DNA of 64,000 nucleotides, taken from NCBI GenBank assembly GCA_016874675.1, contig VGTL01000002.1:9021-73020 (forward strand), read 5' to 3'. The notes under the pieces were generated by a model. It ran no database searches. It was given only the letters and a program-made list of their open reading frames with translations, and was not told where the DNA came from. The position numbers and the translations under genes are program-made. How positions within the stretch are numbered: the first letter of the stretch is position 1; each line of letters starts with the position of its first letter. Of the stretch, positions 5,241 to 58,860 are shown in pieces. This DNA comes from Methanobacteriota archaeon. GTDB lineage: Archaea > Thermoplasmatota > DTKX01 > VGTL01.

Positions 5241-5262
5241 TGAAGGGGCAAGGGGCAAGGGT
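5241..5262 (+). repeat. GGGGCAA heptad mini-array (G-quadruplex-capable) in uvrA-uvrC junction
   Basis: aaggggcaaggggcaaggg lies between the uvrA stop (TAA 5234..5236) and the uvrC ATG 5264. Same heptad unit as the dispersed repeat family. Doubles as a purine-rich RBS. Confidence 0.6.
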
Positions 5263-7898: not shown

Positions 7899-8654
7899 GT
7901 GTCCAAGCGCTGGTTCCGGGAGAAAAAGCGCGAGCACTTCTACAAGCTAGCCAAGAAGGAGCACTACCGCTCCCGCGCGGCCTACAAGCTCAAGCAGATA
8001 CAGGGCCGGTTCAACGTGATTCACTATGATTTCCTGGTCGTCGACCTGGGCGCATCCCCGGGCGGCTGGTCCCAGGTGGCGGCCGGGATAGCCGGCCGCA
8101 ACGGGAAGGTGGTCGCCATCGACCGGGCACGCATGAAGCCCGTGGAGGACGTCTTGGTCCTGCGCGGGGACATGACCAAGGACGAGACCGTGGCCGCGCT
8201 GTTCCGGGCCCTCGGGGGCCGGAAGGCGGACGTGGTGCTTTCGGACATGTCCCCGGACATCTCCGGGAACTACTCCATCGACCACGCCCGGTCAATCGAG
8301 CTTTGCGGGACCGCCCTGGCCTTCGCCCGCCGGGCCCTTCGCCCCGGGGGCAACCTCGTGGTCAAGGCCTTCCAGGGAGACCTCTTCGGCCGCTTCCTGG
8401 CCGCGGTCCGCCAAGACTTCAGAAACGTCCACGCCTTCCACCCGGAGGCCTCCCGCCCCTCGAGCTCGGAGATATACGTTGTCGCCAAGGGATACGGCAT
8501 GGAGGGCGATGGGGGGAAGGCGCGGGGCGCAGGGCGCAGGGCGCAAGGGAAGGAGCAAGGCGCAGGGCGCAAGGCGCAAGGGAAGGAGCAAGGGGCAAGG
8601 GGCAAGGGGCAAGGGATGGACGGAGGATTTCGGGAAAGGGCTGAGGAGGAATAG
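7899..8654 (+). CDS. rlmE: 23S rRNA (uridine-2-prime-O)-methyltransferase RlmE/FtsJ, with repeat-encoded low-complexity C-terminal tail
   Basis: N-terminus SKRWFREKKREHFYKLAKKEHYRSRAAYKL and SAM-binding VVDLGASPGGWSQV with K-D-K-E residues are typical FtsJ. GTG start. The last ~50 aa (GKARGAGRRAQGKEQGAGRKAQGKEQGARGKGQG...) are encoded by the heptad array. Confidence 0.85.
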   Translation: MSKRWFREKKREHFYKLAKKEHYRSRAAYKLKQIQGRFNVIHYDFLVVDLGASPGGWSQVAAGIAGRNGKVVAIDRARMKPVEDVLVLRGDMTKDETVAALFRALGGRKADVVLSDMSPDISGNYSIDHARSIELCGTALAFARRALRPGGNLVVKAFQGDLFGRFLAAVRQDFRNVHAFHPEASRPSSSEIYVVAKGYGMEGDGGKARGAGRRAQGKEQGAGRKAQGKEQGARGKGQGMDGGFRERAEEE

Positions 8655-8745
8655 GCCCCCGCTTCCCCCCTTGCTCCTTGCACCTTGACCCTTGCGCCTC
8701 CAGCCTTGCGCCTTGCGCCTTGCGCCTTGCGCCTTGATATTGCCC
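8515..8745 (+). repeat. heptad-array hairpin repeat (G-rich arm 8515..8627, C-rich complementary arm 8665..8745)
   Basis: Tandem GCGCAGG / GCGCAAG / GGGGCAA heptads, followed after a ~40-nt spacer by the complementary CCTTGCG / CCTTGCC heptads. Can form a very long imperfect hairpin. The G-rich arm contains a (G4 CAA)x3 GGG G-quadruplex motif at 8592..8615. Confidence 0.85.
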
Positions 8746-8756
8746 AAGCGCAATGC

Positions 8757-8763
8757 TTTTAAA
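8757..8763 (+). promoter_or_regulatory. TATA-like box (TTTTAAA) upstream of the L18e operon
   Basis: Only AT-rich heptamer between the repeat arm and the rpl18e ATG 8831. Confidence 0.25.
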
Positions 8764-8830
8764 CCCTTCCCGCGTTAGGGACACTTCACCGAGAGAAAGC
8801 CCGAGAGAAACGGGAAGGCGAGTGCGACCG

Positions 8831-9202
8831 ATGGGTAAAAGCAAGCTTGGGGGCAAGACCAGCGACGTCGTCAGGACGACGATAGAGGAGCTCAGGCTCG
8901 TCTCGAGGGCCAAGGGCGCCCCGGTCTGGCGGACCGTGGCGGACCGGCTCGAGCGGCCCCTCAGGAACTGGGCCGAGGTCAACCTGGACAAGGCCTCCGC
9001 CAGCCTCAAGGAGGGCGAGCTCGGCGTCGTCCCCGGCCGCGTCCTGGGCGGCGGCTCCGCCCGCAGGGGCCTCCAGATCGCCGCGTTCGGGTTCTCCAAG
9101 GGGGCCCGGGAGAAGCTTCTGGCCGCCGGCGGGAGGGCGATGAGCCTCACGGAGGCCGCGGACTCGAACCCCAAGGGCACCAATGTCAGGATTCTGGGGT
9201 GA
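8831..9202 (+). CDS. rpl18e: 50S ribosomal protein L18e (eL18)
   Basis: MGKSKLGGKTSDVVRTTIEELRLVSRAKGAPVWRTVADRLERP is the typical L18e N-terminus. ORF 8753 includes an upstream GTG/TTG extension; ATG 8831 is preferred. Confidence 0.85.
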   Translation: MGKSKLGGKTSDVVRTTIEELRLVSRAKGAPVWRTVADRLERPLRNWAEVNLDKASASLKEGELGVVPGRVLGGGSARRGLQIAAFGFSKGAREKLLAAGGRAMSLTEAADSNPKGTNVRILG

Positions 9203-13204: not shown

Positions 13205-13328
13205 GGTCAAAGGCAGCAAGGCAGAAGGGCAGGAAGGGAGAAAGGCAGAAAGGGAGAACGGGGGGTCGACCGTCAGTCCCTTTCTGCCTTCCTGCCTTCC
13301 TGCCTTTGCCCGTTGCCCCTTGCCCCCC
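13205..13328 (+). repeat. heptad-array hairpin repeat between secY and DUF106 gene
   Basis: aaaggcagcaaggcagaagggcaggaagggagaaaggcagaaagggag, spacer, then complement ccctttctgccttcctgccttcctgcctttgccc. Contains the 21-mer ggcaggaagggagaaaggcag, also present at 29217 and (reverse complement) 28462. Confidence 0.85.
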
Positions 13329-25244: not shown

Positions 25245-25345
25245 CCTTGCACCCTCCTTCCTCTTCTCCCCTTCCCGTCCTTCCCTCTCTCCCCTTTCCT
25301 TTCTTCCTTCTTCCCCGCACCCTGCGCCCTGCGCCCCGCACCCCG
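25245..25345 (+). repeat. C-rich heptad array (single arm) between rps19 stop and rpl22 start
   Basis: ccttcctcttctccccttcc...ccccgcaccctgcgccctgcgccccgcaccccgcgcgc. On the mRNA (minus) strand this is a purine-rich GCGCAGG/GAAGGAA leader ending in GGAGGGTGCAAGG ATG (the rpl22 RBS). Confidence 0.75.
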
Positions 25346-25350
25346 CGCGC

Positions 25351-25824
25351 TCACTTGAGCGGCATGAACTTGGACGACCTCGTGGCGCCCACGCCGGGCC
25401 CGGCGTGCTTCATGAACCTGCGGGTCAGGGCGAACTCCCCAAGGTAGTGCCCGATCATCTCGGGGATTATCTCGACGATCTTGAAATCGTTGCCCTTGTG
25501 GACGCCGATTCTTTTGCCGACGAGCTCCGGGAGCACTATCACATCGCGGCAGTGCGTCTCGACCACCTCGCGGCCGCCCTTGCGGACGGCCTCCCAGAAC
25601 TTGCGGGCGTCCTCGCTGGGGCCGCGGCGCAGGCAGCGGCGCGCCCGGGCGGTGAGCAGGGGCGCAAGCTCCTCGAGCGGCATCGCCCGGAGCTCCTCGA
25701 GCGTGTAGCCGCGGTAGGTGAACTCCTTCTTCCTGCGGCCCAGGAGCTTGCCGACCTTCTTCCGGGCCCTCCTGCGGCTCGCCTTCCCCGAGCCTGCGAA
25801 CTTCTCGTCAGCCATGGTGGACAC
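25351..25824 (-). CDS. rps19: 30S ribosomal protein S19 (uS19)
   Basis: KEFTYRGYTLEELRAMPLEEL ... GKRIGVHKGNDFKIVEIIPEMIGHYLGEFA is canonical S19. Confidence 0.9.
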   Translation of the reverse strand: MSTMADEKFAGSGKASRRRARKKVGKLLGRRKKEFTYRGYTLEELRAMPLEELAPLLTARARRCLRRGPSEDARKFWEAVRKGGREVVETHCRDVIVLPELVGKRIGVHKGNDFKIVEIIPEMIGHYLGEFALTRRFMKHAGPGVGATRSSKFMPLK

Positions 25825-29214: not shown

Positions 29215-29275
29215 AAGGCAGGAAGGGAGAAAGGCAGCAAGGCAGCAAGGGGCGGTGGCGCAGGGCGCAAGCGAC
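29215..29275 (+). repeat. purine-rich heptad array adjacent to L3 operon promoter
   Basis: aagaaggcaggaagggagaaaggcagcaaggcagcaaggggcggtggcgcagggcgcaagcg, including the shared 21-mer at 29217..29237. Confidence 0.8.
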
Positions 29276-29415: not shown

Positions 29416-29733
29416 ATGCCCCGAAGGGGTCGTCCCATGCTGAGCCCCGGCGGTCAGCCCGCCTGGGCCGCACGCCTGCTTCAAGAAGTCGACCTCGGCG
29501 AGATAGCGGGCGACATAGAGCGCTTCGGGCGCGATGACCGCTGGCTCCGGGAGAAATTGGGCCTTTTGCGGAAGGATTTCCCGGGAATGTTCATCGCCGT
29601 CCATGAGAGGAGGGTGGTCGCCTCCGGGAGGACCCTGCTGGAGGTCCGGCGGAAACTGGTCTCAGCCGGAATGGACCCCCGAAGGTGCGTCATCAGGCTC
29701 GTCCTGGCCGTAGAGCCCGACTGGATGTTGTAG
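29416..29733 (+). CDS. hypothetical small protein (upstream partner of retropepsin-like gene)
   Basis: 105-aa ORF (alternative ATG at 29437). TATA-like ttttata at 29384..29391 and hairpin ccccgaagggg just upstream. 13-nt gap to the next gene. Confidence 0.5.
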   Translation: MPRRGRPMLSPGGQPAWAARLLQEVDLGEIAGDIERFGRDDRWLREKLGLLRKDFPGMFIAVHERRVVASGRTLLEVRRKLVSAGMDPRRCVIRLVLAVEPDWML

Positions 29734-29746
29734 GGGGAGCGGCCGC

Positions 29747-30196
29747 ATGGACATCCCGCTCCTTTTCGACGAGGCAGGGAAGCTGTTCCTTTACGCGCAG
29801 GTATTCAGCCCGGGAATCCCCCGGCCGAAACCGCTCAGGATGCACCTCGACACCGGGGCAAGCTCGACGACCCTTTCCCTCAAGGACGCCGAGGAGCTCG
29901 GCGTGGATGCCGGGAGCCTTCGCCCGAGCGGAAGAACGAACTACGGCTACGGCGGCAGGATGGATGTGCGAAGGCTCCCGGAGGCGTGCCTGGTCTTTCT
30001 CACCGTGGACAGGACCGCGTTCACCGTGCCGTTGGACAGTGTCCAGGTCAACTGCACATTCTCCGCGGTCAGGGGAAAAGGCAAGGACCTGGTGGTCTAC
30101 GGGATGCCGTCCGTTCTCGGCGTGGACCTCCTTCTCAAAGCCGGCATGGGCCTGAGCGCGAGCTGGAAGGACAGGACGGCGCGTCTTTCGGCCTGA
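29747..30196 (+). CDS. retropepsin-like (clan AA) aspartic protease
   Basis: Active-site motif HLDTGASSTTLS (D-T-G-A) in the N-terminal third, second hydrophobic flap-like segment (LVVYGMPSVLGVDLL). 149 aa, about right for a single-lobe retropepsin-like fold that dimerises. Confidence 0.7.
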   Translation: MDIPLLFDEAGKLFLYAQVFSPGIPRPKPLRMHLDTGASSTTLSLKDAEELGVDAGSLRPSGRTNYGYGGRMDVRRLPEACLVFLTVDRTAFTVPLDSVQVNCTFSAVRGKGKDLVVYGMPSVLGVDLLLKAGMGLSASWKDRTARLSA

Positions 30197-30289: not shown

Positions 30290-30515
30290 CCCCTGCACCC
30301 TGCACCCTGAGTTTCCCTTGCGCCTTGCGCCTTCCTAACCCCGCACTGAAGTGCGGGGCTTCAACGCTTTCCTATGTTGACCGACCCCGGACTCAAGTCC
30401 GGGGTATCTAGCTTTCAACCTTGCGCCTTGCGCCTTGCGCCCTGCGCCTTCCCATCGCGCCTTGCGCCGTCGTCCCCTGCTCCCTTGCTGCCTTGCTGCC
30501 TTGCTCCCTTGCTCC
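30290..30515 (+). repeat. composite repeat module between convergent genes: heptad arrays + two near-identical GC hairpins + atctagctttca box
   Basis: cccctgcaccctgcaccctg...cccttgcgccttgcgcc; hairpin ccccgcac-tgaa-gtgcgggg (30339..30358); hairpin ccccggac-tcaa-gtccgggg (30385..30404); atctagctttca (30406..30417); then accttgcgccttgcgccttgcgccctgcgcc...cccttgctgccttgctgccttgctccc. Confidence 0.85.
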
Positions 30516-30521
30516 CCTCGT

Positions 30522-33671: not shown

Positions 33672-33850
33672 AAGAAGGCACAGGGCGCAAGGCGCAGGGC
33701 GCAGGGCTTGAGGGTAAAGGCGCAAGGGGCAAGGGGCAAGGTGAAGAACCCTTTCCTCCCTTGCGCCTTCACCCTTGCGCCTTTACCCTCAAGCCCTGCG
33801 CCCTGCGCCTTGCGCCTTGCGCCTTCCCTTGCGCCCTGCGCCTTGCGCCC
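33672..33850 (+). repeat. heptad-array hairpin repeat in divergent promoter region (surface protein / thrS)
   Basis: ggcacagggcgcaaggcgcagggcgcagggcttgagggtaaaggcgcaaggggcaaggggcaaggtg; short spacer; complementary ccttgcgccttcacccttgcgcctttaccctcaagccctgcgccctgcgccttgcgccttgcgcc. A long near-perfect palindrome. Confidence 0.85.
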
Positions 33851-33902
33851 CGTTCTCGGGAAACCTTTATCTTGGCCCGTCCGTCTAGGGGGCCCGATAG
33901 CG

Positions 33903-46022: not shown

Positions 46023-46153
46023 GAAAGGCAGAAAGGCAGGAAGGCAGCAAGGCAGCAAGGGGGAACGGAACGAACCGTCGTCCCCTTGTTGCCCTGCTGC
46101 CTTTCTGCCTTGCTGCCTCCCTTGCTGCCTTGCTGCCTTTCTCCCTTGCTGCC
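46023..46153 (+). repeat. heptad-array hairpin repeat between CDF gene start and tRNA-Ile
   Basis: gaaaggcagaaaggcaggaaggcagcaaggcagcaaggggg; spacer; ccccttgttgccctgctgcctttctgccttgctgcctcccttgctgccttgctgcctttctcccttgctgcc. Confidence 0.85.
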
Positions 46154-49528: not shown

Positions 49529-49547
49529 GGCGTTCCCCCGGTGCCAT

Positions 49548-49642
49548 TGCGGTTGCGGGGATTCGAACCCCGGTTTGAAGCTGGTCCCGGCGCGCGGTGG
49601 CGCCATGGGAAGCTCCAGTCCTAACCACTAGACTACAACCGC
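49548..49642 (-). tRNA. tRNA-Gly (anticodon CCC) with a ~23-nt canonical-position intron
   Basis: Reverse complement: GCGGTTG TA GTCT AGTGGTTA GGAC T GGAGC TTCCCA [TGGCGCCACCGCGCGCCGGGACC] A GCTTC AAAC CGGGG TTCGAAT CCCCG CAACCGC A. Intron follows anticodon-loop position 37. Confidence 0.65.
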
Positions 49643-49662
49643 ACGGAGCTGGGGATATCTGG

Positions 49663-49735
49663 CGTTGGGGTTTGGGGTTCGGGGCATGCGAGGCAGGGGT
49701 CGGGGTACGGGGTGCGGGGTGCTGGGAAGGGAGGA
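49663..49735 (+). repeat. G-tract array (telomere-like TTTGGGG/GGGGTNC units), strong G-quadruplex motif
   Basis: ggcgttggggtttggggttcggggcatgcgaggcaggggtcggggtacggggtgcggggtgctggg. Seven G4 tracts within 65 nt. Lies between tRNA-Gly and the small ORF. Confidence 0.8.
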
Positions 49736-51499: not shown

Positions 51500-51605
51500 C
51501 GATTGGTTCGGGGGACATGCTGGCGCAGCTGGTCAAGGGGACGTGTTGGTCCTATTGGTTCGGGGGACGTGTTGTTGATGTGGGTCAGGGGGACGGAGGG
51601 GGGCG
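51500..51605 (+). repeat. ~52-bp tandem duplication with G5 tracts at convergent gene junction
   Basis: gattggttcgggggacatgctgg...ggtcaaggggacgtgttgg / ctattggttcgggggacgtgttg...gggtcagggggacggagggggg. Four copies of gggggacRtg-like cores. Confidence 0.7.
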
Positions 51606-53522
51606 GCAGCCGGGAGACCAGAAATCCGCGACGTCCCTTGCGGGGTCCGATGATTCGCGAAGGTCCGGGAGGTATTCCCTGAACTGGACGGCGCGGCGGT
51701 CCAGGATGACGGCCACGCCGCGGTCGCGCTCGCTGCGGATGAGCCTGCCGATGGTCTGCAGGAGGCGCCGGGCGGTCGGGGCCCTCACGGCGTAGTCCCA
51801 GCCCTTCCCGAACCGTATGTCGTAGTAGTACTGGAGCGCCTTCTGGCGGGCCGTCGGCTTCGGGTAGGGGATGCCCACGATGACGGCGACGTCCAGCTCC
51901 CGGTCGGGGAAGTCGATGCCCTCGCTGACCCGGCCCCCGATCACGGAGAGCAGTACCGCGCCCTCCTCGCCCCTCCGGCCCTCCTCCTTGAAGCTGTCCA
52001 CGGTCTCGAGCAGGTCCTGCTGGCTGGCGCCCCGCTCCTCGACGAATATCCGGCGGCCGGCGGACCGCCCCAGCCCCATCGCCAGGGAGCGCTCCAAAAG
52101 GTCGAAGCTCGGGAAGAACACCGCGGTGTTGCGGGAGGTGGCGCGGCAGATCTCCCCGGCCTTGCCAAGTATCCCGGAGAACATCTCCTCGTCGGTGAGC
52201 CGGTCCTCGTACTTCATCGAGACCGACGGGTCGCAGAGCACGAGGCGGTTCTCCGGGGGGAAGATGCCGGGGAAGGCGCGTAAAAGCGTCCGGTCGCCCA
52301 ACCCCAGGGAGTCCCGGTACTCCTCGAGGGGCGAGAGCGTCCCGGACATGTGCAGGCCCGAGTGGCAGCGGCCCAGGGGTTCGGAGGCGAGGCCGGGGTC
52401 CATGCAGTAGGCCTCGAGGCGGGGGCTCTCCCCGTCCTTCACGAGCTTGACATAGGCGTCGCTCTCCAGGCCCATCCAGAGCGCCAGGAAGGAGCCCACG
52501 GAGTGGAGGTGGGACCGCGGCACGCGGCCCCCCTTGCGCCGGTTCTCCCTTATCGCCTCGCCGTGGGCGGCCAGGTTCGCCACGGCCGACTCGAGCCGGT
52601 TGGAGGTCCAGCGGAAGGAGTACATGAGCTCCTCCTCCACCGCGCCCGGCGGCACCATGCCGTCCTCGTCGATGAGGTACTCGTCGCGCAGCTGGAGGAC
52701 TATCTGCTCCATCCGGGCGCAGAGATCGCTGACCCGGACCTCGTCTTGGACGTACAGCCCTCCCAGCTCCGTCGCCTCCTGCGAGGCGAGCCTGAGGGTC
52801 TGCAGGCCCAGCGAGAGCGACTTGAGCGAGCGGGCGAACTCGGGCAGGTTGTGCGCCTCGTCCACCACCACCACGAGGTCCTCGAGCGGGCAGTTCATCC
52901 AGTCGAGGAGCCGGGCGCGTATGAACGGGCTGAGAAAGTAGACGTAGGGCGCGACCACCACCGCGGCGGAGCGCGCGAGGAGCTTGGCGGCCTCATATGG
53001 GCAGAGCCCCGCCTCCCGGCAGTGCCGGGCCATCTCCTCCACCGTGGGCAGCGTGCGCTCGCACCAGGACTGGAGCTCTCCGGTCCCGGCGGCCCGGAGC
53101 TCCTCGAAGAACGGGCAGCCGCCCGGCTCGCGACGGCGGGAGGTCTCCTTCCGGTCGTTGCAGAGCACCGAGAGCTCCTCGGGGGAGGCCGTCCTCCACT
53201 CCCGCTCGGTCGCGAGCAGGAGGCAGGTGCTGTGGCGCCCCTGGATGCCCGTGCCCAGCACGCGGGAGCGGCCCGAGATGGCCCGAAGCTCCCGGAACAC
53301 CTGCACCTGCTGGGAGTTGGTCCGGGTGAGATACAGCAGCCGCTTGCCGTGCCGGGCGGCACCGAAGAGCGCCGGCACGAGGGCGCAGACCGTCTTGCCC
53401 GTGCCGGAGCCCGCCTCGGCGAGGGCGCTCGTCCCCGACCCCACCGCACCGGCGAAGAGCCCCATCAGCTCGAGCTGGACGGGGCGGGGCTCGTAGGGGA
53501 ACATCCCGAGGTGGGAATCCAT
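51585..53522 (-). CDS. xpd: ATP-dependent DNA helicase, XPD/Rad3 (ERCC2) family with Fe-S domain
   Basis: Motif I EAGSGTGKT, motif II VVVDEAHNL (DEAH), four Fe-S cysteines in the Arch/FeS insertion (HSTC...C..C..C), C-terminal HD2 motifs (GIDFPDRELDVAVIVGIPYP, RLIRSERDRGVAVILD). Confidence 0.88.
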   Translation of the reverse strand: MDSHLGMFPYEPRPVQLELMGLFAGAVGSGTSALAEAGSGTGKTVCALVPALFGAARHGKRLLYLTRTNSQQVQVFRELRAISGRSRVLGTGIQGRHSTCLLLATEREWRTASPEELSVLCNDRKETSRRREPGGCPFFEELRAAGTGELQSWCERTLPTVEEMARHCREAGLCPYEAAKLLARSAAVVVAPYVYFLSPFIRARLLDWMNCPLEDLVVVVDEAHNLPEFARSLKSLSLGLQTLRLASQEATELGGLYVQDEVRVSDLCARMEQIVLQLRDEYLIDEDGMVPPGAVEEELMYSFRWTSNRLESAVANLAAHGEAIRENRRKGGRVPRSHLHSVGSFLALWMGLESDAYVKLVKDGESPRLEAYCMDPGLASEPLGRCHSGLHMSGTLSPLEEYRDSLGLGDRTLLRAFPGIFPPENRLVLCDPSVSMKYEDRLTDEEMFSGILGKAGEICRATSRNTAVFFPSFDLLERSLAMGLGRSAGRRIFVEERGASQQDLLETVDSFKEEGRRGEEGAVLLSVIGGRVSEGIDFPDRELDVAVIVGIPYPKPTARQKALQYYYDIRFGKGWDYAVRAPTARRLLQTIGRLIRSERDRGVAVILDRRAVQFREYLPDLRESSDPARDVADFWSPGCRPPPSP

Positions 53523-55271: not shown

Positions 55272-55360
55272 GGGGAAGGGGAGCGGGCAGCGGGCAGCGG
55301 GCAGCGGGGAGCGGTGACGGAACGAATCCGTCCGTCCACCGCTCCCCGCTGCCCCGCTGG
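55272..55360 (+). repeat. GGGCAGC heptad-array hairpin (15-bp perfect stem cagcggggagcggtg / caccgctccccgctg)
   Basis: ggggaaggggagcgggcagcgggcagcgggcagcggggagcggtgacggaacgaatccgtccgtccaccgctccccgctgccccgctgg. Confidence 0.85.
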
Positions 55361-55450: not shown

Positions 55451-55497
55451 TTGTCCATCCCACATCGGGGGGAACCGATTTGAATATTTCGCGCGAT

Positions 55498-55630
55498 GGC
55501 AGGGTGCAGGGTGCAGGGTGCGGGGTGCGGGGTGCGGGGTAACGTACGGTGTCCATCTTGAACCCGGTACCCCATGCCCCGAGATATCCCCCGCACCCTG
55601 CACCCTGCACCCTGCACCCCGCACCCTGCG
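55498..55630 (+). repeat. GCAGGGT/GCGGGGT heptad-array hairpin with G-quadruplex motif
   Basis: (gcagggt)x3(gcggggt)x3; 50-nt spacer; complement (cccgcac)(cctgcac)x3 cccgcaccctgcgg. Confidence 0.85.
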
Positions 55631-55703
55631 GTCGGCCACGAGCTTTATATTGTCGTTCGGACATCCCGGTTTCCCTTCGCCAGGGGGAGCTGGTAGGGTT
55701 CGC

Positions 55704-56736: not shown

Positions 56737-56900
56737 ACGACCCGGAATGAGAGCCGGGGCATCTAGCTTTCAGGCGGACCGCACCCTGCCCGCTGCCCGC
56801 TGCCCGCTGCCTGCAGCTCCCTCACCCTTCCATCACCTCACCCCCCTGCATCCCGCGCCCTGCACCTTGTAGCCTCGCAACCCTGCCCCTTGACCCTTGA
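56737..56900 (+). repeat. second copy of composite module (hairpin + atctagctttca + C-rich heptad arrays)
   Basis: cgacccggaatgagagccggggcatctagctttca (56737..56772) is ~80% identical to 30381..30417. Followed by ggcggaccgcaccctgcccgctgcccgctgcccgctgcc ... ccctgcaccttgtagcctcgcaaccctgccccttgacccttgacccttgaccc. Confidence 0.8.
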
Positions 56901-56965
56901 CCCTTGACCCGTTCCCCGATAGTATAAATATCCCCTGCCCTCTATACGGGTACGAAGGAGACCGG

Positions 56966-57335: not shown

Positions 57336-58184
57336 ATGCAATCCAGAGTTCTAGATTTCCTGGAGACCCGCGTCGACGCCCTCAAGCACAGGGACAAGGA
57401 CCAAGACGAGATGCGCCGCACCGGATCGGAGATCTTCGACGAGCGCACGCTGATGGTCCTCTACAAGCTCCTCAGCACGGGCGTGTTCGACACGCTCGAG
57501 TTCCCCATCTCTACTGGGAAGGAGGCCAACATCTTCCGGGGGACCAAGGGCGACCGGTTCGTCGCCGTCAAGATCTACCGCGTCGCCACGGCCACCTTCA
57601 AGAGCTTCGGCAAGTACATCATCGGCGACCCGCGCTTTAGGAGCATCGGCCGGGACCACCGCGGCCTCATCGGCCTTTGGGCCCAGAAGGAGTACAAGAA
57701 CCTGCTGCGCCTGGGAGAGGCGGGAGTGCGCGTCCCGGAGCCGATCACCTGCCGCGAGCACGTGCTTGTCATGGAGTACATCGGGCAGCCGGACGCCGCC
57801 GCCCCGATGTTGCGCGACGCCGGGCTCGACCGCGCCGGCCTCGAGCGCGTCAGGCACGAGGTGCTCGCATTCTTCGACCGCAGCCACAACCGGGCCGGCC
57901 TCGTCCACGGCGACCTGAGCGAGTACAACATACTCGTCGACCGCGGAAGGACCGTCTTCATCGACCTCGCCCAGGCGGTGGTGCTGGAACATCCGATGGC
58001 CGCGGAGCTCTTGGTGCGCGACCTGCACAACATGGCCGCCTGGTTCGGGAGGAAGGGCCTGCCGTTCGACTGGAAGGTCGTCCACAACCAGGTGCTCTCG
58101 AGGAGCAGGCGGCTCGTCTCGGACCGGTCAAAGGCGCGGCGGCGGACCCGGCGGGCCGGGCGCCGATGCGAAGAGGAGGAGTGA
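57336..58184 (+). CDS. RIO-type serine/threonine protein kinase (Rio1-like)
   Basis: STGKEANIFRG (RIO P-loop), VAVKIYRV, VMEYIG, catalytic LVHGDLSEYNILV, and DLAQAV. Confidence 0.85.
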   Translation: MQSRVLDFLETRVDALKHRDKDQDEMRRTGSEIFDERTLMVLYKLLSTGVFDTLEFPISTGKEANIFRGTKGDRFVAVKIYRVATATFKSFGKYIIGDPRFRSIGRDHRGLIGLWAQKEYKNLLRLGEAGVRVPEPITCREHVLVMEYIGQPDAAAPMLRDAGLDRAGLERVRHEVLAFFDRSHNRAGLVHGDLSEYNILVDRGRTVFIDLAQAVVLEHPMAAELLVRDLHNMAAWFGRKGLPFDWKVVHNQVLSRSRRLVSDRSKARRRTRRAGRRCEEEE

Positions 58185-58186
58185 GT

Positions 58187-58756
58187 GTGGAACATTTCCT
58201 GAAGATTCCCAGGGACAGGATCGGCGCCCTCATAGGACCCGGGGGCAGGGTCAAGCGGGAGATGGAGAAAAGGACGGGCATCCGGGTCGATGTCGAGTCC
58301 GAGACCGGGGAGGTCACCATCCACTACGATTCGGCCCGAGACCCGGCCCTGGTGCTAAAGGTCAACGACCTCGTGAAGGCCGTCGGCAGGGGGTTCTCCC
58401 CCCAGCGCGCCATGCGGCTGCTCAAGGACGACCAGTTCTTCGCCGTCATCGACATCCAGGACTACGTCGGCAAGAAGGTGGACCACGTCCGCCGGATGCG
58501 GGCGCGCGTCATAGGCACCGGCGGCAAGACCCGCCGGGTGATCGAGGAGCTCTCCGAGGCGGAGCTCTCCGTCTACGGCGACACCGTCGCCATCATCGGC
58601 GACCCGGTCTCGCTGGACATCGCCCGGACCGCGGTGGACATGATTCTCAACGGCTCGGAGCACTCGGCCGTCTACTCCTACCTTGAGCACACCAGGCGCG
58701 AGCGGCGGCTGGCCGAGCTCCGGCCCCCGGAGGACCGGGTCAAAGAGGAAGAATAA
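58187..58756 (+). CDS. KH-domain RNA-binding protein (archaeal Dim2/Pno1-like)
   Basis: Two KH-like GxxG motifs (IGALIGPGGRVKRE; VIGTGGKTRRVIEE). GTG start 3 nt after the Rio stop, with RBS gaggagg. Confidence 0.75.
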   Translation: MEHFLKIPRDRIGALIGPGGRVKREMEKRTGIRVDVESETGEVTIHYDSARDPALVLKVNDLVKAVGRGFSPQRAMRLLKDDQFFAVIDIQDYVGKKVDHVRRMRARVIGTGGKTRRVIEELSEAELSVYGDTVAIIGDPVSLDIARTAVDMILNGSEHSAVYSYLEHTRRERRLAELRPPEDRVKEEE

Positions 58757-58860
58757 AGGCAGCAGGCAACTGGCAGCGGGCAGTGGTGGGACGACGGACA
58801 ATCGTCCCCCGCTGCCCGCTGCCTCTGCCCCGCTGCCCCCCCGCCGCTCCCCGCTGCCCC
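58757..58860 (+). repeat. GGCAGCG heptad-array hairpin between convergent genes
   Basis: aaaggcagcaggcaactggcagcgggcagtggtgggacgacggacaatcgtcccccgctgcccgctgcctctgccccgctgcc. Confidence 0.8.

Follow-up and report, generated by a model that had tools for sequence, protein, structure and literature searches.

The rlmE gene and its surroundings

The window, as the whole 64-kb stretch of DNA analysed is called here, comes from an uncultured lake archaeon. It carries an rlmE gene whose 3′ coding sequence forms one arm of a hairpin repeat, followed by a spacer and by rpl18e (Table 1).

Table 1. Positions of genes, repeats and hairpins in the window
Feature	Position	Strand	Description	Evidence
rlmE CDS	7899..8654	+	GTG start, 251 aa, TAG stop	ORF list, Pfam FtsJ, PDB FtsJ/RlmE matches
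FtsJ/RlmE methyltransferase domain	7965..8495	+	aa 23-199	Pfam, PDB alignment, relatives, AF2
C-terminal extension	8499..8651	+	aa 201-251, Gly/Arg/Lys/Gln/Ala-rich, predicted disordered	ORF list, relatives, AF2
G-rich 5′ arm	8514..8620	+	heptamers GGCGCAR/GGGGCAA in a 33-nt (11-codon) unit, 3.2 copies; encodes aa 206-241	Tandem Repeats Finder, direct-repeat family D1
Canonical G-quadruplex motif	8592..8615	+	(GGGGCAA)x3GGG, mRNA strand; formation predicted only in the absence of the C-arm	
Hairpin loop/spacer	8621..8655	+	last 10 rlmE codons; EEE codons 8643-8651, TAG 8652-8654	sequence and fold
C-rich 3′ arm	8656..8736	+	(CCTTGCG)n, non-coding, complements the G-arm	repeats and fold
Conserved promoter-like block	8750..8830	+	CAATGCTTTTAAACCC...GCGTTAGGGACACTTCACCGAGAGAAAGCCC, upstream of rpl18e	near-identical in 9 orthologous loci
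rpl18e	8831..9202	+	first gene of the downstream rpl18e-rpl13-rps9-rpoN operon	Pfam, synteny
Sister hairpin	13208..13326	.	(AAGGCAG)n/(CTGCCTT)n, directly 3′ of secY	
Sister hairpin	33674..33853	.	GGCGCAA unit type as at rlmE; between divergent secreted-protein and thrS promoters	
Sister hairpin	46023..46153	.	(GAAAGGCA)n/(CCTTGCTG)n, upstream of tRNA-Ile	
Sister hairpin	55278..55359	.	(GGGCAGC)n, 19 nt 3′ of tRNA-Cys	
Sister hairpin	55494..55634	.	(GCAGGGT)n/(ACCCTGC)n, between divergent tRNA-Cys and carbamate-kinase promoters	
Sister hairpin	58757..58860	.	(GGCAGC)n, fills the spacer between convergent KH and cupin genes	
Rio1 kinase gene	57336..58184	+	product ends ...RRCEEEE	orthologues EEE-ended
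KH/Dim2-like ribosome-assembly gene	58181..58756	+	product ends ...VKEEE	homologue comparison

Pfam FtsJ (PF01728) matched residues 23–199 of the rlmE product over profile positions 1–181 of 181 (E = 8.7e-56), and the alignment with E. coli FtsJ (1EIZ, E = 3.7e-36) stopped at residue 198. Residues K30, D116, K156 and E191 aligned with the E. coli catalytic tetrad (K38, D124, K164, E199), and the K-D-K-E tetrad was invariant across 28 RlmE sequences. The domain was modelled by AF2 with pLDDT >90. With the full domain and tetrad present, the product is a predicted RlmE/FtsJ-type 23S rRNA 2′-O-methyltransferase. The sequence-only reading had placed the end of the domain near VVAKGYG, with the ORF running on for about 50 codons. 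This proved accurate: VVAKGYG occupies residues 194–200, and 51 codons follow, whose translation includes GKARGAGRRAQGKEQGAGRKAQGKEQGARGKGQG exactly and finishes ...MDGGFRERAEEE before the TAG.

The long ORF might be an artefact, in which a normally 200-aa RlmE is read through spuriously after an error in sequencing or assembly or after a recent frameshift. Assembly of the region is difficult: an L085 contig, 99% identical, breaks exactly at the start of the array. Against this, contigs of three independent samples (L168, L169 and L170) matched the window without differences over positions 7899–8835 (937 nt), the same 251-aa protein was found on 6 contigs, and in-frame tails with a terminal EEE occurred in all close relatives. 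An identical protein is also present in public catalogues (P0001/P0241). An assembly error behind the read-through, for which the sequence-only reading had allowed, is thus essentially refuted so far as the tools used can show, and we regard an artefact of any of these kinds as vanishingly improbable.

The C-terminal tail of RlmE

Residues 205–251 were modelled by AF2 with pLDDT <50 and without secondary structure. RlmE lengths and C-termini were compared among relatives, as the sequence-only reading had proposed. About 22 of 24 (57–84% identity) carried tails of 18–80 residues, all with an EEE end. RlmE homologues of 200–210 aa lacked the tail; in a scan of contigs with the RlmE alignment, the matches listed were relatives of at most 54% identity, and these had no tails. 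At 9 orthologous rlmE loci the frame and the EEE tip were retained while array lengths differed widely, and the EEE codons varied synonymously (GAAGAGGAA, GAGGAGGAA or GAGGAAGAG).

The pN/pS ratio was 0.16 for the FtsJ domain, 0.31 for the tail start (codons 198–217), and 0.16 and 0.13 for the last 11 and last 6 codons. These values show purifying selection on the tail start and tip; the middle evolves freely. Together, the EEE tails in about 22 of 24 relatives and the low pN/pS at start and tip confirm, at the level of sequence comparison, that the tail is a genuine conserved part of RlmE and no accidental read-through. Selection on the tail suggests in turn that it is translated.

The order of events can also be read from these comparisons. 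An EEE tip and frame common to relatives despite differences in array length, together with the synonymous changes in the EEE codons, show that the tail and its stop are older than the present array, which occupies a pre-existing variable linker. Earlier it had been suggested that a repeat insertion captured the stop codon. Capture of the stop is not supported, the EEE-stop tip and frame being shared by about 22 of 24 relatives and 9 orthologous loci. The repeat-insertion idea does hold in a weaker form: the linker in this genome was remodelled by the genome's own GGCGCAA-type repeats, also found in the arrays at 30.4k and 33.7k, in place of the relatives' (CAGGGTT)n.

The hairpin at the rlmE locus

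Tandem Repeats Finder described the array at 8514–8620 with a period of 33 (3.2 copies, 87% matches) and with a period of 7 (14.6 copies), and found a complementary array at 8669–8736 (CCTTGCG x 9.7). Complementarity between the arms reached 94% over 32 nt. The RNA was predicted to fold with −161.9 kcal/mol, compared with −120 ± 5.3 for 200 dinucleotide shuffles (z = −7.9; second window value −10.1). The pattern GGCGCAAGGCGCAAGG, with at most 2 mismatches, occurred 32 times in the window against 0.15 expected.

The reading of the tail as the translation of a hairpin repeat's G-rich arm was borne out, the array at 8514–8620 pairing with the C-rich array at 8656–8736. The TAG had been placed inside the repeat; it lies instead in the spacer (loop) of about 35 nt between the arms. 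Within the coding arm the heptamers are organised at a higher-order period of 33 nt (11 codons), and repeat growth by this unit keeps EEE in frame. In this lineage the freely evolving linker DNA doubles as a purine-rich 5′ arm, with its C-rich partner in the spacer before the rpl18e promoter and the stop codon in the loop. The block preceding rpl18e probably contains a TATA box.

Related hairpins were present at other rlmE loci. L082 has (CAGGGTW)n/(ACCCTGW)n (z = −8.8), L086 a hairpin with z = −4.8, and L081 (GCAGGCA)n/(TGCCTGC)n, lying wholly past the stop codon (z = −5.3). The hairpin has decayed in L092 (z = −1.0) and L088 (z = −0.6). The hairpin is real, with arms that co-vary from one orthologous locus to the next. 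A minus-strand ORF across the arms was dismissed as an artefact of high G+C content, and Shine-Dalgarno-like arrays were set aside, AAGGAG occurring only twice, in the rlmE arm.

A family of inverted-array hairpins

Seven inverted-array hairpins lie within the window. The family was defined by two complementary arrays of 7–8-nt units that lie in a spacer between transcription units, with the G/purine-rich arm on the 5′ side. The rlmE hairpin fits this family and has its higher-order structure in common with the arrays at 30.4k and 33.7k. The G/purine-rich arm was the 5′ arm in 13 of 13 hairpins. For 7 transcription units (secY, KH, cupin, PPIase, tRNA-Cys and two others), a G-rich array began 1–19 nt past the 3′ end, and 3 of the 7 window hairpins lay between divergent promoters, with TATA-like boxes 9–24 nt from each. 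In the relative L165, hairpins occurred at the same four intergenic positions as in the window, built from wholly different units, among them (CCGTGAR)n. The hairpins form a genome-wide family placed between transcription units, with the G/purine-rich arm 5′ on both strands, of which a relative keeps the positions and not the sequences.

No hairpins were found in the syntenic regions of L166 and L167 (59% G+C). Given this absence and the decay at rlmE in L092 and L088, the hairpins are therefore dispensable. Lone arrays without a partner were seen at 30291–30516, 56784–56917 and 49665–49731; a G-arm at 29215–29275 and the C-arrays at 30291–30516 flank a 2-gene cassette. Rfam at gathering thresholds returned only 4 tRNAs over the window, and the hairpins matched no known RNA family. 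A CRISPR identity was rejected, since the arrays lack spacers and are inverted. The motif ACGACGG was present three times in arrays against 0.5 expected, too weak a signal for a shared apical motif of the hairpin loops. The literature searched contained nothing relevant on tandem-repeat hairpins in Thermoplasmata.

G-quadruplex potential of the coding arm

A canonical G-quadruplex (G4) motif had been noted on the mRNA strand, and (GGGGCAA)x3GGG was confirmed there. At least four runs of three or more G, 1–7 nt apart, occurred at 8504–8549 and 8592–8615. Across the window there were 24 such motifs, compared with 18 ± 3.8 in shuffles, which is not above the expectation from composition. Several arrays, made of GG-only or (CCGTGAA)n units, lack a G4 motif altogether. 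With G-quadruplex energies in ViennaRNA, the G-arm alone was predicted to fold as a G4 (−41.9 vs −33.9 kcal/mol); in the full hairpin RNA, (GGGGCAA)3 was predicted to stay paired.

The G-rich sense strand might fold into an RNA or DNA G4 at which ribosomes or RNA polymerase pause before the coding region is finished, tuning rlmE expression or read-through into the rpl18e operon. Consistent with this are the two canonical motifs, the location of about half of the window's 24 motifs inside arrays, the G3N4 periodicity that (CAGGGTT)n likewise gives the rlmE arrays of relatives, the sense-strand G-rich arrays straight after 7 gene ends, and a G-arm predicted as G4 before the C-arm is made. However, the window count does not exceed composition, the G4 segment is predicted to be base-paired in the full transcript, and no three-tetrad G4 is possible in (GAAAGGCA)n at 46023, (AGGCAGC)n at 58757, (GCAGGCA)n of L081 or (CCGTGAR)n of L165. 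The trait common to most members is arm complementarity. The G4 as an active feature is thus weakly supported, and regulation by it improbable; the motif would be a by-product of the repeat-unit sequence.

Possible roles of the hairpins

The sequence-only reading had offered, as its other option, an RNA structure that modulates expression; the rlmE hairpin may be one, as a member of a genome-wide family found at the borders of transcription units. Because of their position only, our best guess is that the hairpins may be bidirectional transcript-boundary elements. They would act in termination, 3′-end protection or shielding of an adjacent promoter, in both directions, and would serve a genome of 66% G+C almost without oligo-T terminators. 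T-runs of at least five within 90 nt downstream were found at 3 of 47 gene ends in the window, and none followed the rlmE stop over that distance. Overlap with the G-rich arm would be tolerated by rlmE because the arm translates to harmless hydrophilic residues, and ribosomes on the tail would hold the hairpin open until the last one terminates in the loop.

Precedent comes from the G+C-rich archaeon Haloferax volcanii, where 503 termination sites have a hairpin ahead of them; at one such hairpin, which sits in a coding region, 59% of transcripts were terminated in vivo (PMC7237163). The likeness extends to RNA 3′ ends preceded by hairpins, one of them intragenic, and to termination in vivo without an oligo-T run (PMC7237163). 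The Haloferax hairpins are, however, ordinary ones and not inverted tandem arrays.

Some features count against a boundary role. Between divergent promoters, where 3 of the 7 hairpins lie, no transcript needs ending. Termination of archaeal RNA polymerase classically depends on oligo-T and aCPSF1 rather than on hairpins. Also on this side are the decay or absence of hairpins in some relatives, the lack of a T-run past the C-arm, the lone partnerless arrays, and the secY hairpin, which may lie inside an operon. At rlmE no T-run comes right after the 3′ arm; the sequence past 8736 is GATATTGCCC, and the first TTTT falls in the TATA-like box at about 8757. An archaeal oligo-T terminator is accordingly absent from rlmE. 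Compared with bacterial intrinsic (rho-independent) terminators, the hairpins share a G+C-rich stem-loop just downstream of a gene, of a symmetry that would allow both directions, and the rlmE stem-loop is of this kind (−162 kcal/mol, z = −7.9). They differ in the missing U-tract, in stems of 30–90 bp rather than 5–15 bp, and in the archaeal polymerase.

Sense and antisense RNA stabilities and G-U counts of 15 hairpins showed no consistent bias, and RNA-level and DNA-level roles are inseparable on this account. A DNA-level element would be a palindrome that extrudes as a cruciform or binds a chromatin or topology protein, insulating promoters or absorbing supercoils, and perhaps also a preferred insertion site. 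Besides the equal stabilities, the three hairpins between divergent TATA-like boxes (9–24 nt from each) would fit such an element, as would the arms around the 2-gene cassette and the insertions that, in L083 and L084, break synteny exactly between rlmE and rpl18e. However, neither a candidate binding protein nor a conserved recognition sequence was found, cruciform extrusion is unfavourable for imperfect arms with loops of 17–60 nt, and the chirality would have no obvious meaning for a cruciform. We give this explanation little credence.

The inverted arrays could instead be functionless, generated by slippage, template switching and gene conversion and piling up in high-G+C spacers, with one of them tolerated by the rlmE linker. 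Their units vary by locus and drift fast, they are homogenised within the genome, and lone arrays exist; decayed or missing hairpins in relatives and RNA folds without strand bias point the same way. Three observations are difficult to reconcile with this account, which we judge unlikely, if less so than the DNA-level or G4 alternatives: the four positions shared with L165 despite wholly different units, the arm complementarity kept while units change, and the uniform chirality (13/13), which a strand-symmetric mutational process does not predict.

The explanation that we favour, with fair though incomplete confidence, is that 8462–8654 is the 3′ part of a genuine rlmE, encoding a disordered, basic Gly/Arg/Lys-rich linker, variable in length and sequence, with a conserved acidic EEE cap, and that the linker DNA is also an arm of a hairpin from a putative transcript-boundary family.

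Comparison with known repeats

Rickettsia palindromic elements (RPEs) are palindromic repeats read in frame within housekeeping proteins without destroying them (PMC10969869). As with these and MITE-like repeats, the rlmE repeat is predicted to be translated in frame inside a housekeeping protein. RPEs are, however, discrete mobile elements of about 100–150 bp that share a family consensus, encode a conserved peptide and fall entirely within the ORF; the rlmE hairpin codes in its 5′ arm only, and its arms are tandem arrays of 7–8-nt units that vary by locus and species. Neither terminal repeats nor target duplications were seen at the arrays. Membership of the MITE or RPE families was rejected on these grounds: there is no fixed length, ends, duplications or consensus, and copy number varies in the tandem arrays that make up the arms.

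REP/BIME palindromes of enterobacteria are likewise G+C-rich, imperfect and numerous in each genome, in spacers at gene 3′ ends or between transcription units. They are linked to mRNA 3′-end stabilisation and termination. They also act as structured targets in mRNA turnover (PMC12320835). REPs have a genome-wide consensus and RAYT transposases, whereas the hairpins of this archaeon share architecture and chirality only. REP/RAYT membership was rejected for want of element ends and of a consensus, the units (GGCGCAA, AAGGCAG, GCAGGGT, GGGCAGC and GAAAGGCA) differing by locus. A non-exhaustive scan of the ORFs of the 64-kb window revealed no RAYT (Y1 transposase) gene; the relative L084 has one PF01797 gene close to rlmE.

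EEE carboxy termini on RNA-maturation proteins

Proteins were scored for an EEE at the extreme C-terminus, conserved in orthologues of the clade and absent from distant homologues; RlmE, the KH/Dim2-like factor, Rio1 and Trm56 all showed this pattern. The EEE end was present in all KH/Dim2-like homologues of at least 66% identity, in 4 of 4 Rio1 orthologues, and in 27 of 28 close against 1 of 92 distant homologues of Trm56. None of 286 ORFs in loci of distant Thermoplasmata ended in EEE. These counts indicate that EEE-COOH is a clade-specific trait common to the four proteins. The literature searched contained nothing relevant on a C-terminal EEE motif in archaeal ribosome biogenesis.

Two known systems offer partial parallels. 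Eukaryotic fibrillarin is a ribose 2′-O-methyltransferase with a disordered Gly/Arg-rich (GAR/RGG) extension; the RlmE tail is also a basic, glycine-rich, disordered appendage, which by analogy could bind RNA. The fibrillarin extension is, however, N-terminal, non-homologous and without an acidic tip. EEVD of Hsp70/Hsp90 is an acidic C-terminal docking motif, and like EEE it is a very short acidic sequence at the extreme carboxy terminus of otherwise unrelated proteins. It differs in that we know of no reader protein for EEE-COOH in this clade. Candidates for such a reader are a docking hub, a polyglutamylating ATP-grasp ligase and a stability system.

A broader reading, which we offer tentatively and think possible rather than probable, joins the two findings. 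EEE-COOH would be a short linear motif of the clade that marks RNA-maturation enzymes (RlmE, Trm56, Rio1, KH/Dim2 and possibly more) for a common reader, and the inverted tandem-heptamer hairpins, obligatorily G-first, would be an undescribed class of bidirectional archaeal terminators or insulators that replace oligo-T signals in high-G+C Thermoplasmata, with translation of the rlmE 5′ arm gating hairpin formation.

In this archaeon, the sequence that encodes the tail of a ribosome-modifying enzyme is also the arm of a large intergenic hairpin repeat. The locus shows how 3′ coding DNA of a housekeeping enzyme can double as a structural repeat that evolves fast: the disordered linker absorbs the repeat, and nothing but the reading frame and a tip of three residues is held by selection. 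G+C-rich archaea, where termination signals are poorly understood, may on this evidence possess a boundary signal based on hairpins. Four unrelated RNA-maturation proteins with an EEE end in one uncultured Thermoplasmata clade give an unexpected, concrete and testable hint that archaeal ribosome and tRNA biogenesis factors have a partner or modification in common. A shared reader, if true, would give an archaeon a primitive means of bringing its ribosome and tRNA maturation factors together or of regulating them jointly.

The rlmE product carries a carboxy-terminal appendage

Analysis of the rlmE ORF, in a window of 66% G+C from an uncultured archaeon whose protein hits carry the name Thermoplasmata, identified its product as an ordinary RlmE to which an unusual appendage is attached. 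The Pfam FtsJ profile was covered in its entirety by aa 23–199 (E = 8.7e-56), and alignment with E. coli FtsJ (1EIZ) stopped at aa 198. The K-D-K-E tetrad (K30, D116, K156, E191) did not vary across 28 relatives. Past the domain, 51 further codons, GMEGDGGKARGAGRRAQGKEQGAGRKAQGKEQGARGKGQGMDGGFRERAEEE, lead to a TAG at 8652–8654. AlphaFold2 gave the domain pLDDT values >90, and residues 205–251 values <50, without secondary structure.

The sequence-only reading had the tail encoded by the G-rich arm of a hairpin repeat, and this was borne out by Tandem Repeats Finder. The tail codons form a G-rich array (8514–8620; period 33, 3.2 copies, 87% matches, or alternatively 14.6 heptamers AAGGCGC), followed by a complementary array at 8669–8736, (CCTTGCG) × 9.7. 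Complementarity of the arms reached 94% across 32 nt. The RNA fold had an energy of −161.9 kcal/mol, compared with −120 ± 5.3 in shuffles (z = −7.9), and a second shuffle set for 8499–8746 gave z = −10.1. The stop codon does not lie inside the repeat, as had been thought, but in the loop between the arms, outside any repeat unit.

An assembly error is very unlikely, since three contigs from different sample assemblies were identical to the window across 7899–8835, and the identical 251-aa RlmE is recorded on six contigs. Identical contigs come from JGI samples Ga0194111, Ga0194125 and Ga0194127. Conceivably, only the number of in-frame 33-nt units might be wrong. One contig, at 99% identity with the window (Ga0194110_10080168), ends at its position 2777, rlmE codon 198, where the array starts. 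This indicates that short-read assemblies break at the arrays, which are probably under-represented in MAGs.

The tail is conserved in orthologues

Lengths and carboxy termini were compared in relatives, as the sequence-only reading had proposed. RlmE homologues at 57–84% identity had 213–273 aa and nearly all ended in EEE; those below about 60% identity had 200–210 aa and ended directly after the domain. The DNA of nine orthologous rlmE–rpl18e junctions was also compared. In the group at 75–84% identity, the tail opens with a conserved GMEW[ST]GDRLxGKGR[VI]KG, continues through a Val/Gln/Gly/Arg/Asp-rich middle of variable length, (CAGGGKT)n in the DNA, and finishes at most loci in a K(K)RGQGKKEEE-like tip. 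The EEE codons were GAAGAGGAA, GAGGAGGAA or GAGGAAGAG, with synonymous variation in the tip Arg and Gly codons too. By Nei–Gojobori counts, pN/pS was 0.16 in the domain; in the tail it was 0.31 across codons 198–217, 0.16 over the final 11 codons and 0.13 over the final 6.

Gain or loss of one heptamer shifts the frame; nonetheless, all orthologues arrive at EEE in frame, which is difficult to account for if the tip is not both translated and important. The idea that a repeat insertion captured the stop codon thus found no support, as the tip is common to relatives, in frame and low in pN/pS. By these comparisons, the RlmE tail is an old, selected feature. In the window lineage its linker has evidently been overwritten by a genome-specific repeat type, with frame and tip kept.

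A family of polar hairpins

Seven complete hairpins, each with G-arm, loop and C-arm, were found in the window, together with lone arrays (see table). The 7–8-nt unit differs from hairpin to hairpin, while both arms of any one hairpin match. Arrays at 8.5k, 30.4k and 33.7k have in common the string GGCGCAGGGCGCAA-GGGAAGG-NGCAAGGCGCA and are therefore paralogous. The G/purine-rich arm was 5′ in all seven, and likewise in 5/5 hairpins of L165 and 1/1 of L081 (loci of relatives). Because an inverted repeat reads alike on both strands, this order is a genuine polarity, which a mutation process with strand bias would not produce.

Features of the window and of relatives' loci (L-numbers)
Feature	Position	Remark
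rlmE ORF	7899–8654 (+)	251 aa
Hairpin	8511–8736	rlmE 3′ end, upstream of rpl18e promoter
Hairpin	13208–13326	directly 3′ of secY
Hairpin	33674–33853	between divergent promoters
Hairpin	46023–46153	upstream of tRNA-Ile
Hairpin	55278–55359	19 nt 3′ of tRNA-Cys
Hairpin	55494–55634	between divergent promoters
Hairpin	58757–58860	between KH and cupin genes (convergent)
Lone array	5243–5261	
Lone array	25313–25348	
Lone array	29215–29275	G-rich
Lone array	30291–30516	long, C-rich
Lone array	49665–49731	telomere-like, G-rich (TTGGGGT/GGGGTGC), no C-rich partner
Lone array	56784–56917	
Apex with mini-palindrome	46062–46090	
Apex with mini-palindrome	55314–55340	
Apex with mini-palindrome	58788–58806	
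Apex with mini-palindrome	L081:6823–6846	
Apex with mini-palindrome	L165:138–180	
DUF5678-like gene	29416–29733	cassette between arrays
Aspartyl-protease-like gene	29747–30196	cassette between arrays
Rio1	57336–58184	ends CEEEE
KH/Dim2-like assembly factor	58181–58756	ends VKEEE
Trm56	L084:1204–1722	adjoins rlmE in L084; ends REEE

At rlmE the arms co-vary across species: GGCGCAA/TTGCGCC in the window, CAGGGTW/WACCCTG in L082, L086 and L093, and GCAGGCA/TGCCTGC in L081, where the entire hairpin lies downstream of the stop. In L092 and L088 the hairpin is weak or lost and the EEE tail retained. L165 (KH 80% identical to the window's; 67.7% G+C) has hairpins in four spacers that also hold them in the window (Roadblock/tRNA-Cys, tRNA-Cys/carbamate kinase, carbamate kinase/aIF1A and KH/cupin); its units, (GAAGGGTG)n and (CCGTGAR)n, are unrelated. 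Gene order is unchanged in L166 and L167 (59% G+C), where no arrays were found.

Mini-palindromes rich in ACGG/CCGT, such as GGGACGACGGACAATCGTCCCC, are present in many hairpin loops, and ACGACGG occurred three times in arrays against 0.5 expected; this hints at a common apical module, though it is statistically weak. The G-rich and long C-rich arrays about 1 kb apart around a two-gene cassette look like a hairpin split by insertion. The rlmE–rpl18e junction is also broken by inserted genes in L083 and L084 (PemK toxin, Kelch protein, Y1 transposase).

Other elements were noted. An exact 19-nt motif, CCGGGGYATCTAGCTTTCA, occurs at 30399–30417 and 56754–56772 (0.04 expected); each copy makes up the 3′ strand of a small stem-loop that lies beside C-rich arrays, downstream of a gene. 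Directly downstream of a helicase gene (51585–53522, minus strand), a 26-nt repeat (GGTTCGGGGGACGTGTTGG...) is present in three to four copies (51502–51606); it has no relation to the heptamer arrays. The telomere-like array adjoins a 97-nt tRNA (49547–49643, minus strand; confirmed by Rfam), to which ARAGORN assigned a four-base anticodon and which probably contains an intron.

Possible function of the hairpins

The canonical G-quadruplex motif reported on the mRNA strand, (GGGGCAA)x3GGG at 8592–8615, is present, as is a second at 8504–8549. The window held 24 such motifs, compared with 18 ± 3.8 in shuffles, and several arrays have no G3 runs. With quadruplex energies included, a quadruplex was predicted solely for the G-arm folded alone (−41.9 vs −33.9 kcal/mol); when the full sequence was folded (−165.3 kcal/mol), (GGGGCAA)3 remained paired. 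A transient quadruplex may form in nascent RNA, which would be consistent with the G-first polarity. The quadruplex is not, however, the feature common to the family.

The hairpins occupy spacers between transcription units, adjoining TATA-like boxes. A conserved CAATGCTTTTAAACCC block follows the rlmE C-arm by 14–20 nt in every orthologue, and boxes resembling it flank those hairpins that lie at 33.7k, 46.1k and 55.5k. G-rich arrays begin 1–19 nt past the 3′ ends of uvrA, secY, the gene at 25351–25824, the PPIase gene, tRNA-Cys, KH and cupin. T-runs of at least five, the classical archaeal termination signal, occurred within 90 nt downstream of 3/47 gene ends (after 2338, 42552 and 54124). 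In the G+C-rich Haloferax volcanii, 503 mapped termination sites are preceded by hairpins, and in vivo one coding-region hairpin caused termination of 59% of transcripts (PMC7237163). From this, with position as the part directly observed, we infer that the arrays may be bidirectional transcript-boundary elements. They would end transcripts, guard 3′ ends, or screen the promoter that follows against read-in. For rlmE, we speculate that ribosomes on the 5′ arm would prevent the stem from closing until the final ribosome has terminated in the loop, coupling translation to hairpin formation.

Against a boundary role, three hairpins lie between divergent promoters, hairpins are gone from some relatives, and arrays without a partner occur. 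Fold energies of the two strands did not differ consistently, so the hairpins possibly act at the DNA level, or have no role.

The rpl18e upstream region (8750–8830; CAATGCTTTTAAACCC...GCGTTAGGGACACTTCACCGAGAGAAAGCCC) was near-invariant in L081, L082, L086, L088, L090, L092 and L093, relatives whose RlmE is merely 65–84% identical. This suggests that the ribosomal-protein operon has a conserved promoter together with a 5′ leader that is structured or regulatory.

The nearest analogues are the palindromic elements of Rickettsia, read in frame by ribosomes (PMC10969869), REP/BIME palindromes (PMC12320835) and the H. volcanii hairpin terminators. REP and MITE membership was rejected on the defining tests, as the elements have neither a consensus nor element ends. 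Unlike intrinsic terminators, they carry no U-tract, and Rfam holds no family for them.

An EEE carboxy terminus in RNA-maturation proteins

The EEE terminus recurs in three other RNA-maturation proteins of the clade (see table). KH/Dim2-like homologues of at least 66% identity all ended in EEE, and those below 61% in ...DGMGF or similar. Rio1 orthologues ended in DEEE (L165), GGEEE (L166) and TTEEE (L167), after otherwise unrelated linkers. For Trm56, the ending was found in 27 of the 28 closest homologues, including that of the window organism (86,666-nt contig), and in 1/92 distant ones. Among long ORFs at loci of more distant Thermoplasmata it was absent (0/286). The linker ahead of EEE ranged from 3 to about 75 residues. 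As EEE termini occur in the array-free relatives L166 and L167, the motif is independent of the repeats. No description of an EEE-COOH motif was found in the literature searched. This carboxy terminus, common to RlmE, Trm56, Rio1 and the KH/Dim2-like factor, is the most interesting lead to arise from the analysis.
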